35,451 nt of DNA from a virus (IMGVR_UViG_2695420367_000003:1-35451); one strand, 5' to 3'. Counted from the first letter of the stretch, positions 1,562-7,246 are shown. The notes: generated by a model from the letters alone, not told the origin. Translations and numbers: made by a program.

Positions 1562-1810
1562 AGCTAAAGTATTAGCTTAAAAATAAAGTATACCTAGCGA
1601 ATATAATCTAGGACTAGTTGTAACGCCCGAAATGATTGATTGCGTGAGCAACAAAATTTTTCTTCCATTGTTGTGAAATCATTTAGCCATAAAGTTTATG
1701 CAGAGATTTTATTTTATTTTTGAGTTGATTTTTTTGTAACGAGCTGTATATTTCGCGCCTCTTGTCATACCAGTTATTTTTTTCATTATATTCATAACGT
1801 TGATTGAACT

Positions 1811-4800
1811 ATGACCACTGTGAATAAAAAGTTAAAAAAAACTGCATCTGGCGCGATTACATGGTCGGTAATTGTTACCCAGATATTATCTCCAGTTTCT
1901 CTTTCTTTGATCCCAGCAAACAGTTTTGCATCATCTGGTAATAAAGATGTTACGCAAACTTATGCCAGCGATGAGCATGCAAATAAAGTGGCCTCATTTG
2001 CAGCAAGTGCAGGTCAGAGCCTGGCGAATAATAATGCAAGTAGTTTTGCTGTAAATACTTTATCAACTCAGGCGACAAAAGAGGTCGTCGACTGGTTGCA
2101 ACAATATGGCAATGCGCGCATCAAGCTTAATGTCGATGATTCTTTTTCCTTGAAGGATTCATCATTCGACTTTTTATATCCATGGCTGGATACTCAGGAT
2201 TATGTGCTATTCAGTCAGACATCACTACATCGTACTGATGACCGAAATCAGACCAATATTGGTTTGGGGATTCGTCATTTCACTCCTGATAACGCAATGT
2301 TGGGTGCGAATGTTTTCTATGATTACGATTTAAGTCGCAGTCACTCTCGTGCAGGTTTTGGGGTTGAGTACTGGAGAGATTATTTCAGGCTTGGTGTAAA
2401 TACCTATTTTGGTTTGTCTGACTGGAAGAACAGTCGGGATATTGATGATTATCTGGAAAGACCCGCAAATGGCTGGGATTTTTCTGCTGAAGGATGGCTA
2501 CCTGCTTATCCGCAATTAGGGGCATCCATTCAGTTTGAAAAATATTATGGTAAAAATGTCGGGTTATTTGGAAGCGATAATCTGCAGGAAAACCCTTACG
2601 CAGTTACTGGGGGAATTTCTTATACACCAGTTCCTCTGATTAAGTTTTCTGCACAGCATAAGCAAGGACAGAGCAACGTTCACGATACAACCTTTGGTGT
2701 TGAGTTTAATTATCGCCCGGGCGTTTCCCTTGCTGAACAGCTTAGCAGTGACAATGTTGCTGTTATGCGAGAAGTCCAGAACCGGCGTTATGATTTTGTT
2801 GAACGAAATAACAACATTGTTCTGGAGTACAAGAAGAAGCATGCACTGAAAATCAGTTTGCCAGAGTCTGTTCAGGGGGAGGGGGAATCAATCATCCCTG
2901 TAACACTGACAATCAACAATGCTAGTGGTGGTATCAAGTCTGTACAGTGGAATGATAGTGCATTCACTGCGGCTGGCGGCAAGATCAGTGGAAATGGCAC
3001 ATCATGGCAGATCACTTTACCGGCTTATAAAAGCGAAGGTGTAAATTCGTGGAATGTTGGAGCCACAGTACAGGATAACAGAGGCAACGTTTCCAACTAT
3101 GCCGTGATGAATATTAGCGTTACTGATAGTGGTGTCTCGACGGCTGATTCGTCTTTTACACTGGATGGAGATTCGTCGCCGACGATCTCTGCTGATAGCC
3201 AATCCACTTATCCAATAGTATTAAGCCTGAAAGATAGTAACGGTAAGGCATTAACCGGACTGGCTGATGACATTGAAATGTCAGTGGAATTTACAGCAGA
3301 TAGCAATAGTGCTCGACAGCGTGAAACGGTAACTGCTCCGTCATTAGGCGCGGTAGAGGAAATCTCTGCTGGGGTATATCGCTCTGTTCTGACTGCTGGT
3401 TCGCAGGCTGGTACGGTACGTGTAACTGCAAAAGTTCAGGGAAAAACCTTTACTCTGAATATTAAGCAGGCAGCCATTACTGATAGTGATGTATCGACAG
3501 CTGATTCGTCTTTTACACTGGATGGAGATTCGTCGCCGACGATCTCTGTTGATAGCCAATCCACTTATCCGATAGTATTAAGCCTGAAAGATAGTAACGG
3601 TAAGGCATTAACCGGACTGGCTGATGACATTGAAATGTCAGTGGAATTTACAGCAGATAGCAATAGTGCTCGACAGCGTGAAACGGTAACTGCTCCGTCA
3701 TTAGGCGCGGTAGAGGAAATCTCTGCTGGGGTATATCACTCTGTTCTGACTGCTGGTTCGCAGGCTGGTACGGTACGTGTAACTGCAAAAGTTCAGGGAA
3801 AAACATTTACTCTCAGTATTAAGCAAACAGCAGCAACAGAACCTGATTCTGAGGTCAGTGCTGTTTTAACCGCTGCACCAGCAGAACAGGTAGTTGGTTA
3901 CAATATCAATCTACAACTGGCAGTGAAGGATTCACAAGGAAATGCAATCACTGGTGATAACACTCTGAGCTTTTATGCTCTTAACCAGGCAGAAGGAGTC
4001 GAGTTTGGGACTGTAACGGAAAAAGACGGTGTCTATAGCGCGACAGTAACTTCAAAACGAGCTGGTAAGATTACTATCGGTGTTAAATCTGATAGTCATG
4101 ATTTCTCAGGTGTTAAGAAAGAAATCACCTTTATTGAGGACCGGCAGCAGGTTACATTCTCTCAGTTTGAAGCCAGCCAAAATAATGCATTGGCTGATGG
4201 AAAACAGAGAAATATGGTAACTGTAAGCCTTGCGGACCGTTTCGGCAATGTTGTTCCTGGTTATGCTGTCACATTGTCTTTACCAGCAGGGATAACTCAA
4301 GTTGGTGGTGAACATGCTGTTTCAACTGACGAAAATGGTAATGCTATTTTTGCGTTAATAAGCTCCACTCCGGGGTCTTACGTGATTACAGCTCATGCTG
4401 GTTCTCAGATGTCTACTGAGTTAACAGTGACCTTTGCATCAAATATGACCGGAGCTTCACTGTCACTGACGCCTGAAAGCAGTAGTTTAATTTCCAATAT
4501 TCCTGCTAATGGTAAGGATGCAGCGGTATTAGATGTGCAGCTGACAAATACGAATGCGTCGGTCAATGGGCAAAAGATTCAGCTCATCACCTCATCTGAA
4601 GGATTATCTATACCAACAAATATCGTGACTGATTCAACAGGGCATGTTTCTGTTCCGCTTACAACGGTGAAAGCTGGTGAGTACACGGTGACTGCACGGG
4701 TGACTGACGGTTCCCATAGCGTGGAATCTGGCAGCGTTAAGTTAACTTTTGTGCCCGATGTTGCTTCTGCAGAACTTACTATGAGTGTATCAAAACAAGA

Positions 4801-5757: not shown

Positions 5758-6799
5758 ACAGGTTAGCGTTTGGGTTTTGTTGTTGGGGAGCTGTTTTTAT
5801 AGGCGCTCCCAGGTTTTTAGTAAACCACTCAACGACTCTGTTTATAATAATTGGCTGATACCATGTCTTATCGCCATGCTCGGCCCCTTCTACCAGCACG
5901 TACTCAGCGTTATCGCCGTTCTTCTTCAACATCCTGAATAGTTTGGCGCTTTGCTCAGGTGAAACCAGAGTGTCTTTGCTACCATGCATAATAAGAAATG
6001 GGGGTTTTACTCCTTTCATATGTCCGATTGGACTGGCGTTTAGCGCTTTTTCTTTTGACGCTGTGATGGGGGCTCCCGCAAAATTTCTGAATGCAGGGCC
6101 ATTGATCATTAAGGCTTCGGTTACGGCAGGAGAGCGATGAACCTCCTGCACTGATTCAGGGAACCCCTCGCCAATATTCAACAAGTCAGAAATCCCATAA
6201 AGTGTGGCAACTGCCTGAACATCTGAGGATTGCTGAAGAAAGTCACCTTTATCAAAGGTTTTGTCACCATTTGTAGTTCCCATCATCTGAGCAAGCCATC
6301 CACCGGCAGAGTCACCCAGAACTCCGATTCTTTGAGGATCAATCCCATAATTGCTGGCATGCTCTCTCAGGTAACGTATTGCAGCTTTTCCATCCTCAAC
6401 TGGTGCTGGAAATGTATCAGGAATTGTTCTGTATTCTACAGCGGCCACAACAAAACCAGCTTCTGCCAGAGCCATTCTCATTTCAATAAATTTGTCATGT
6501 TCAGAAGACATGAATCCGCCGCCGGGATAATAAATAATGGCTGGTTTTAAATCATTTGTTCGCGGGACAAGAACTGACATGTGAAGCTGTCTGACAGAAC
6601 GAGTTCCTTTTATCTGGGAATAAACAACATCACCAATGAGATCGACCTGGTTTCTGGTCGGTGAAACACTAATGATATCTGCACCCGGGGTGTAACCAGG
6701 AAGATTAGTCTGGACAGGTGTTGCACAACTCCCGACCGACATGGCCATTGACATACCATACAATAGTGTTGCAGATGATAATATCTTGTTAATTTTCAT
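5756..6799 (-). CDS. Secreted alpha/beta-hydrolase esterase/lipase, probable lipoprotein
   Basis: Signal peptide with lipobox-like ...MSVGSC; oxyanion-hole motif PGGGF and nucleophile elbow GDSAGG typical of carboxylesterase/lipase alpha/beta hydrolases. Confidence 0.75.
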   Translation of the reverse strand: MKINKILSSATLLYGMSMAMSVGSCATPVQTNLPGYTPGADIISVSPTRNQVDLIGDVVYSQIKGTRSVRQLHMSVLVPRTNDLKPAIIYYPGGGFMSSEHDKFIEMRMALAEAGFVVAAVEYRTIPDTFPAPVEDGKAAIRYLREHASNYGIDPQRIGVLGDSAGGWLAQMMGTTNGDKTFDKGDFLQQSSDVQAVATLYGISDLLNIGEGFPESVQEVHRSPAVTEALMINGPAFRNFAGAPITASKEKALNASPIGHMKGVKPPFLIMHGSKDTLVSPEQSAKLFRMLKKNGDNAEYVLVEGAEHGDKTWYQPIIINRVVEWFTKNLGAPIKTAPQQQNPNANL

Positions 6800-7246
6800 G
6801 TTTTACATGCCTTGACTTATCGGATGAAATTCTCTTACTGAATTTAACGGCAGTTTAATAGCCGTACAACTCGTGGTAGCCAGGGAAATATCCCAGTCGT
6901 GGTTAAGGTTGTACTTGACGGCTATTATTTCAACAATGCTTAAAGTGAGAGCTTAAGGTTATGCGTATGTTTTACAGTCCGAGTAGATTCTGACCAATAG
7001 CTTCTTTGTATAATTCTGTCAGAAATAAATCTTGGCTTGCATGAAGTTTGAGACCTTATCTTGTTTGATTATGAATAATCAATTCGCCATAATTGTATCA
7101 CCGGAGCCTGAACAACTCCGGTGACTTCTGCGCTAAACGGGGACGTTTATGCGCACATACAATCCAACCTATCTTCTCCCTTCACAGATGCAGAAATGCA
7201 CCTGCGATATCTTGCATCCAGCGTTTGATCTCTGCGGAGGTGAAGC

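Follow-up and report, generated by a model that had tools for sequence, protein, structure and literature searches.

A 35,451-nt stretch of viral DNA (IMGVR_UViG_2695420367_000003:1-35451, hereafter the window) begins with the lambdoid replication genes O (39-863) and P (860-1561), and directly after P it carries cargo genes: one for an inverse autotransporter adhesin and, convergent to it, one for a probable lipoprotein esterase. The order after P is a 249-bp AT-rich stretch, the adhesin open reading frame (ORF), a hairpin with a T tract, the convergent esterase ORF, a 447-bp spacer and ybcN. An earlier description made from the DNA alone (hereafter the sequence-only reading) had placed these features correctly, i.e., both ORFs, the AT-rich leader and the hairpin are found at its coordinates. 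It was also right to place the cargo after P and before the nin-type genes, as P ends at 1561 and ybcN begins at 7247. Its proposal that the ren/ninB region has been replaced is true of ren, which is missing, but not of ninB: ybcN, which is NinB-like (21.6 bits against Pfam NinB, just under the cut-off of 23.8), has been kept. The host prophage is of the DLP12/lambda type and is defective.

The sequence-only reading treated adhesin and esterase as a single cargo, and this view fails because the breakpoint falls between the genes and each occurs without the other. In temperate coliphage isolates of the 4A7 group, the gene order is P, ren, emrE, a hypothetical gene, ybcK (recombinase), esterase (on the minus strand) and ybcN. 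When the window is aligned to 4A7 with blastn, homology stops at 1551, ten bases before the P stop codon, where ren begins in 4A7, and it resumes at 5752, immediately past the hairpin stem. Only 1552-5751 is therefore the adhesin cassette, and it takes the place of the ren-emrE-hypothetical-ybcK segment of 4A7/DLP12-type phages. Its left junction lies in the 3' codons of P from 1552: P ends in GAMK here, versus GASV plus the start of ren in 4A7. On the right, the 4A7 esterase has a different hairpin (GCCCGCATAAGTGCGGGC), which is followed by the same CTTTTTACAGGT.

Other genomes carry one gene without the other. The esterase is found without the adhesin at the same spot in the isolated phages 4A7, D2, 1W, 3W and Perceval. 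The reverse is seen in a prophage of the sequence type (ST) 38 kind, which has the identical left junction, a 94%-identical adhesin and the identical adhesin hairpin, together with a different repressor/CII region. There, the hairpin is followed directly by the ybcN upstream region, with no esterase. A single two-gene island is ruled out by the breakpoints and by these independent distributions. Since the esterase sits beside ybcN in 4A7-type phages that have no adhesin, it is older at the slot than the adhesin. Judged by these sequence comparisons, the P-to-ybcN slot is a site that holds two independent cassettes, of which the esterase is the older occupant. The features of the locus are collected in Table 1.

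Table 1. Features of the P-to-ybcN locus (positions in the window)
Feature	Position	Strand	Evidence or remark
Replication gene P	860-1561	+	Pfam Phage_lambda_P, E = 3e-61
Adhesin cassette (candidate moron): leader/promoter, adhesin gene, terminator stem	1552-5751	+	blastn breakpoints versus phage 4A7
AT-rich untranslated leader and promoter region	1562-1810	+	249 bp, 30.1% GC versus ~50% in the phage backbone
Candidate sigma-70 promoter: TTGATT, 16-nt spacer, TATATT	1725-1752	+	Consensus scan and cross-genus conservation
Inverse autotransporter (type Ve) adhesin, FdeC-like, 1302 aa	1811-5719	+	Pfam IAT_beta, Big_1, Invasin_D3
Predicted Sec signal peptide, aa 1-40	1811-1930	+	Basic n-region, hydrophobic core, ...NSFA/SSG cleavage site, read by eye from the translation
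Beta-barrel translocator of the twelve-stranded type, aa 97-341	2099-2833	+	phmmer versus invasin/intimin barrels
Tandem 357-bp (119-aa) repeat, two copies, each an Ig-like domain plus linker	3120-3825	+	Tandem Repeats Finder, 97% match
Distal tip domain, aa 1186-1302	5366-5716	+	First half Big_1-like, second half family-specific
GC-rich hairpin and T tract	5731-5757	both	Predicted intrinsic terminator of the adhesin; weaker for the convergent esterase
Probable lipoprotein carbohydrate esterase, 347 aa	5756-6799	-	Pfam BD-FAE alpha/beta hydrolase
Intergenic region common with 4A7-type phages	6800-7246	none	98-100% identity to other esterase-bearing loci
ybcN, NinB-like, first backbone gene past the cargo slot	7247-7702	+	Annotation in identical genomes

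The sequence-only reading named the adhesin an invasin/intimin-type inverse autotransporter of 1302 amino acids (aa), and its domains bear this out. Pfam IAT_beta matches aa 57-334 with E = 4.9e-101, there are multiple Big_1/Invasin_D3 matches, and the Prokaryotic Genome Annotation Pipeline label is "inverse autotransporter beta domain-containing protein". The whole barrel aligns in phmmer with those known from the crystal structures of invasin and intimin (4E1T, E = 4e-75, and 4E1S, E = 4e-64, respectively), and the domain after it matches intimin D00 (6TQD). A profile grown from the adhesin's own Big_1 unit finds eight more immunoglobulin (Ig)-like domains, the last at aa 1197-1289, so the passenger has nine in total (one D00-like and eight Big_1-like).

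The distal end of the passenger is peculiar to the family. Pfam detects no LysM domain anywhere in the protein and, at the C-terminus, no C-type lectin cap or Intimin_C match even at E <= 10, with Ig-like matches only. In a search of 1.84 billion representative proteins, full-length matches to the last 117 residues occur within the adhesin family only, and remoter matches cover just the Big_1-like first half of the tip. The homologues available from the protein database are all >92% identical and thus give no useful alignment for modelling. A single-sequence AlphaFold2 model of aa 1000-1302 had a predicted local distance difference test (pLDDT) score of 47 and was not used for a fold search.

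Scored against the named families of NCBIfam, the protein fails every cut-off by a wide distance (IatC 393 versus 2400, intimin 330 versus 1400, SinH 317 versus 999, YchO 272 versus 508), and it is therefore a member of no named family. Going by its predicted domains, it is of the type Ve adhesin class and is built like FdeC, outside all named families. IatA-D, YeeJ and SinH belong to the same class, but the cut-offs it fails include those for IatC, SinH (IatB) and YchO (IatA). Intimin and Yersinia invasin have a homologous barrel, a D00-like first passenger domain and an Invasin_D3/Big_1 stalk as in the adhesin, but neither a lectin-like receptor-binding cap nor a LysM domain is detected in the adhesin. 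Membership of the intimin/invasin subfamily was rejected on the undetected lectin cap and the intimin score.

FdeC (EaeH) comes closer, with the same build of signal peptide (predicted in the adhesin), no LysM, invasin-type barrel, chain of Ig-like domains and no lectin cap. It is the closest E. coli relative of the adhesin (colinear over 1205 residues, 33% identity overall, 59% in the barrel), and fdeC is also the nearest E. coli gene at the DNA level. However, fdeC has its own chromosomal locus beside ecpR-ykgL, whereas the adhesin gene is found only next to phage P. The FdeC tip is unrelated to that of the adhesin, and the adhesin has a variable 119-aa repeat. We therefore treat the two as paralogues and reject the adhesin as an FdeC variant, since the two occupy different loci, are 33% identical and are found together in the same genomes.

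The cassette brings candidate signals for its own expression. The AT-rich leader accompanies the adhesin gene in all E. coli loci examined. We aligned the upstream regions of two E. coli alleles, E. albertii and two Citrobacter-type sequences, and at a mean column identity of 62%, the TTG of the -35 element (1725-1727) and the entire -10 element TATATT (1747-1752) are invariant. This comparison supports a predicted promoter that travels with the adhesin gene.

At the other end, the hairpin consists of GGGGAGGGC-TTA-GCCCTCCCT (5731-5751), followed by CTTTTT. On the plus strand it folds with -25.3 kcal/mol (z = -4.1), and 0/200 shuffles fold as well. On the minus strand, the T tract is poorer and interrupted (CATTCAATTTTG), and z is only -2.3. 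Given this difference between the strands, we predict that the hairpin terminates transcription of the adhesin well and that of the esterase less efficiently. The single bidirectional terminator of the sequence-only reading is thus strong in one direction but weaker in the other, and its hairpin is not common property but part of the adhesin cassette.

The GC content, a check which that reading had proposed, identifies the cargo as compositionally foreign: the cassette has 43.1% GC versus ~50% in the backbone, and GC at third codon positions (GC3) is 0.36 versus 0.59-0.62 in P and ybcN. In some related phages the cassette is present and in others it is absent at the same backbone position, which is the mark of a moron. 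Taken with the candidate promoter and terminator, it has what looks like the anatomy of a moron, and it could be expressed from the lysogen.

The adhesin gene is in good repair. The ORF is intact in the window and in 25/26 loci that contain the whole gene (1183/1184, 1302/1303 or 1421 aa), and the one remaining copy stops at codon 42. Between adhesin alleles, the ratio of nonsynonymous to synonymous substitution rates (dN/dS) is 0.15-0.20 (~230 substitutions), with ~0.1 in the barrel and ~0.2 in the passenger. The intact ORFs and low dN/dS indicate that selection maintains the adhesin in most carriers. Its length classes are set apart by complete 357-bp repeats, of which there are 1-4 copies, and 1540-aa forms are present in the protein database.

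To describe its distribution we use 5426 complete E. coli genomes, with the adhesin scored by its barrel at >=95% identity. It is present in 558 of them (10.3%), and the P-adhesin junction is found in the same number, i.e., in E. coli the gene is always joined to P. A query spanning the 3' end of P matched 3492 genomes, but the adhesin adjoins it in only 558, so the arrangement is not the common ancestral state. Carriers include ST131 (JJ1887, SaT040 and O25b:H4 records) and ST38, and the adhesin occurs in at least two immunity backgrounds. The same two arrangements, with or without the esterase, are seen in 30 IMG/VR viral contigs. Among 50,697 deposited phage genomes the adhesin has no DNA-level match, and tblastn with the barrel against the same set matches nothing but a 2-kb fragment and a chromosomal contig of Salmonella that is mislabelled. 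Whether the arrangement is "unusual", as the sequence-only reading put it, thus depends on where one looks: it is so relative to deposited phage genomes (0/50,697), but it is common in E. coli chromosomes.

Outside E. coli, the gene has other neighbours. Citrobacter orthologues are 1186 aa long with one repeat copy and are 43-67% identical, with colinearity right to the final residue. Two Citrobacter species have the orthologue divergent from pgaABCD, the poly-N-acetylglucosamine biofilm operon, a neighbourhood that may hint at the ancestral function of the adhesin. A third Citrobacter species has it beside a P4-type primase and DUF5375, and in a metagenomic viral contig its neighbour is a 186-like block of CI, CII and integrase genes. 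In E. albertii, the gene lies downstream of chromosomal genes resembling ydcSTUV-patD, on a contig that breaks off within it, and the N-terminus encoded there is 80% identical. The only DNA common to the orthologue loci is the gene itself, 130-550 bp upstream and ~25 bp downstream. Because the Citrobacter relatives stand in chromosomal or island contexts, the adhesin family is older than its association with phages.

We consider it probable that the slot carries two independent lysogenic-conversion cassettes and that the adhesin cassette is a complete moron for a surface adhesin or biofilm factor. In the lysogen, the gene would be transcribed from the promoter at 1725-1752, perhaps subject to silencing of the H-NS type, as with other inverse autotransporters. 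Sec would export the protein, after which its N-terminal barrel would insert into the outer membrane. Hairpin-type secretion would then thread the C-terminal passenger outward to form a rod of nine Ig-like domains, ~35-40 nm long, with the family-specific Ig-like tip at its end. By analogy with FdeC, YeeJ and IatB-D, the protein may act as an adhesin or in biofilm formation at the surface of the lysogen, and gain or loss of the 119-aa repeat (1-4 copies) would change the length of the stalk. The cassette may spread among lambdoid prophages by homologous recombination in its flanks (the 3' end of P on one side, the T tract or ybcN region on the other).

Several observations count against this interpretation. 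There is no recognisable Shine-Dalgarno sequence before the ATG at 1811. The consensus scan found 12 promoter-like sites versus 12.4 expected from shuffles, so it is conservation that speaks for the candidate promoter. No relatives of the tip are detectable beyond the family, and its model is poor (pLDDT 47), so the ligand cannot be inferred. The capsid gene of the window is split by a 10.4-kb element (described below), so in this prophage the cassette acts like a gene of the chromosome and not like the cargo of an active phage. Finally, under laboratory conditions the other inverse autotransporters of E. coli are for the most part silent (PMC6714894), and the same may hold for the prophage adhesin.

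The last point leads to the rival that survives best, which we nevertheless judge unlikely: that the adhesin is a silenced passenger, xenogeneically repressed and never expressed to any use, which persists only through retention of the prophage or its remnant. A leader with 30% GC is of the kind typically bound by H-NS (we infer the link to H-NS), the gene has no clear ribosome-binding site, and native expression of other E. coli inverse autotransporters is undetectable or dependent on regulators, e.g., LeuO (PMC6714894). Some genomes have IS66 insertions in the P-to-ybcN stretch, and the copy truncated at codon 42 also fits with decay. However, purifying selection of the strength given above, acting on ORFs of 3.5-4.3 kb that are intact in nearly all copies, is unlike a neutral passenger. 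The promoter elements are conserved across genera, and the repeat number varies in-frame, with the reading frame preserved.

Alternatively, adhesin and esterase could be one co-acquired, co-functional unit, e.g., with the adhesin binding a glycan or plant fibre which the esterase deacylates. The two are convergent neighbours with a common hairpin, both are AT-rich relative to the backbone, and they are adjacent in 428/558 adhesin-bearing genomes. Against this, the esterase is found in 681 genomes versus those 428 junctions and also in isolated phages that have no adhesin. Conversely, ST38-type prophages and 8/30 viral contigs have the adhesin but no esterase, and the Citrobacter orthologues have no esterase neighbour. 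With the homology breakpoint between the two genes as well, this explanation is largely refuted as a statement on origin, and overall we hold it to be improbable. We give least credence of all to the adhesin serving the phage itself, through early rightward read-through on induction (e.g., cell clumping for spread, or superinfection exclusion in place of ren): it has the same orientation as O-P-nin-Q and lies exactly where relatives have the exclusion gene ren, but it has its own conserved candidate promoter and a strong terminator that would block early transcription to Q unless antiterminated, the near-identical prophage has no N-like ORF at the usual place (none of >=40 aa from the kil-like gene to cI, at 16300-16815 of that prophage's record, outside the window), orthologues exist outside phages and the gene is kept in visibly defective prophages.

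If the adhesin cassette is a moron, as we favour, it resembles the classic lambdoid morons lom and bor/iss in being a gene of foreign composition with its own terminator and probable promoter, placed between backbone genes. The ren-emrE-ybcK cargo of DLP12 occupies the same P-to-ybcN slot. The adhesin differs from classic morons in size, as its 3.9-kb gene is far above theirs, and in encoding a type Ve secretion protein. Genes of the classic kind are found elsewhere on the same prophages: a lom-family gene on that of CP148326 and iss on that of JJ1887.

Phage-borne surface proteins such as Lom, Bor/Iss, Eib and Eaa are well known, so the finding is biologically unsurprising. Eib and Eaa are also autotransporter-class adhesins on temperate phages or prophage-like regions. 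The Eib proteins (type Vc) are described as phage-encoded in the part of PMC8065619 that cites Sandt et al. 2002, and Eaa (type Va) is a prophage-associated E. coli adhesin at a tRNA-Thr site (PMC12399667). However, both belong to other type V subclasses (trimeric and classical, respectively), are unrelated in sequence and have other phage positions. Literature searches, including searches by protein accession, returned no description of this adhesin gene or of a phage-borne inverse autotransporter, with matches on FdeC, SinH, IatC/Air and Eaa.

The census of Goh et al. 2019 (PMC6714894) recognised seven E. coli inverse-autotransporter groups, all at conserved chromosomal positions, and showed that the proteins are surface-exposed and drive biofilm when expressed. 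For JJ1887 and SaT040, its table has only fdeC, iatA and iatB (PMC6714894). Both strains carry the prophage adhesin, which the census does not list. A more far-reaching proposal is possible, but we regard it as doubtful: that the adhesin is an eighth E. coli inverse-autotransporter family missed by the census and prophage-only in E. coli, that it moved from chromosomal loci of relatives (e.g., next to pgaABCD in Citrobacter) into phages, and that its variable stalk and orphan tip give the major pandemic ExPEC lineages ST131 and ST38 an advantage in colonisation or biofilm formation that aids the success of these clones.

Prophage cargo is a main route to colonisation traits in E. coli lineages, and until now intimin/invasin-class adhesins have been regarded as fixed genes of the chromosome or of pathogenicity islands, whereas this one is mobile, intact and under purifying selection. 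It is present in ~10% of complete E. coli genomes, including ST131 and ST38, yet it is nameless and outside the published census. It is also a cheap and well-defined target (one gene, one candidate promoter and assays known from IatB-D), with interest for adhesion, biofilm and vaccine antigens. The locus is also a clean case in which cassettes have been exchanged at a hot spot of lambdoid phages.

The esterase is a clear member of the BD-FAE family (PF20434; 153.9 bits versus a cut-off of 26.8, E = 5.7e-45) with an intact Ser-Asp-His triad. It matches PDB 6NKF (Lip_vut4) with E = 1.6e-37, and the Ser of GDSAGG, the Asp of SKDTLV and the His of GAEHGD all align. The next relatives in the PDB are a GH43-CE bifunctional enzyme and acetyl-xylan/carbohydrate esterases. 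Its N-terminus, MKINKILSSATLLYGMSMAMSVGSC, ends in a lipobox-like VGSC, and AMSVGS-C-ATP fits a PROSITE-style lipobox by eye. Relatives with 63-80% identity are chromosomal in Dickeya, Pectobacterium, Pantoea, Kosakonia, Klebsiella and Rhizobium, and one of the esterase's relatives is named "Ferulate esterase" by UniRef. The protein is most likely a surface-anchored carbohydrate (feruloyl/acetyl) esterase, i.e., the product of a metabolic conversion gene.

Carbohydrate-type esterases are known as prophage cargo from NanS-p, the prophage-borne 9-O-acetyl-sialate esterases of enterohaemorrhagic E. coli. NanS-p of Shiga toxin (Stx) prophages belongs to a different fold family and lies downstream of stx, whereas the esterase here is nearest to proteins of plant-associated Enterobacterales. 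The spacer beyond it (6800-7246) should contain the promoter of the esterase and the upstream region of ybcN. In several E. coli genomes, the P-to-ybcN stretch has insertions of the IS66 family of insertion sequences (ISEc23, ISCro1), and in some of these the esterase is annotated as a fold-domain protein only, which suggests disruption.

Past the slot, ybcN is followed by ninE, ybcO, rusA, ylcG and Q (8648-9337). The adhesin region (1400-7300) is 100% identical to that of E. coli Z1323HEC0475 (NZ_CP148326.1), and the match to this genome extends over 1-18094 and 28520-35450 of the window but not over 18095-28519. In Z1323HEC0475, the prophage lies at tRNA-Thr beside proA, and its integrase and tape-measure genes are both frameshifted. 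In the window, the tape-measure ORF is intact (853 aa, 32687-35248) and the capsid gene is split. As the lesions differ, the same cassette resides in prophages that are defective in different ways. After the lysis genes, a small ORF on the minus strand (11248-11586; hypothetical protein WP_000025003.1 in a near-identical genome) occupies the position where an ST131 relative has iss/bor, making this another variable cargo slot.

The segment at 18095-28519 is a 10.4-kb element inserted in the prophage's lambda-E-type major capsid gene (flanks 17823-18125 and 28532-29308), which is split into an N-terminal fragment of 100 aa and a C-terminal fragment of 258 aa. The element encodes an integrase, a DUF4222 protein, a D5-type primase/helicase, a single-stranded DNA-binding protein (SSB) and genes of unknown function, and it has its own homologues of the major capsid protein E (417 aa) and of the head-decoration protein D. 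It looks like a phage satellite integrated in the capsid gene of its presumed helper, and it may be of more interest than the adhesin cassette. The same layout ("major capsid protein x3") is seen in other E. coli genomes, where the inner genes vary (DUF2971, DUF262, restriction endonuclease).

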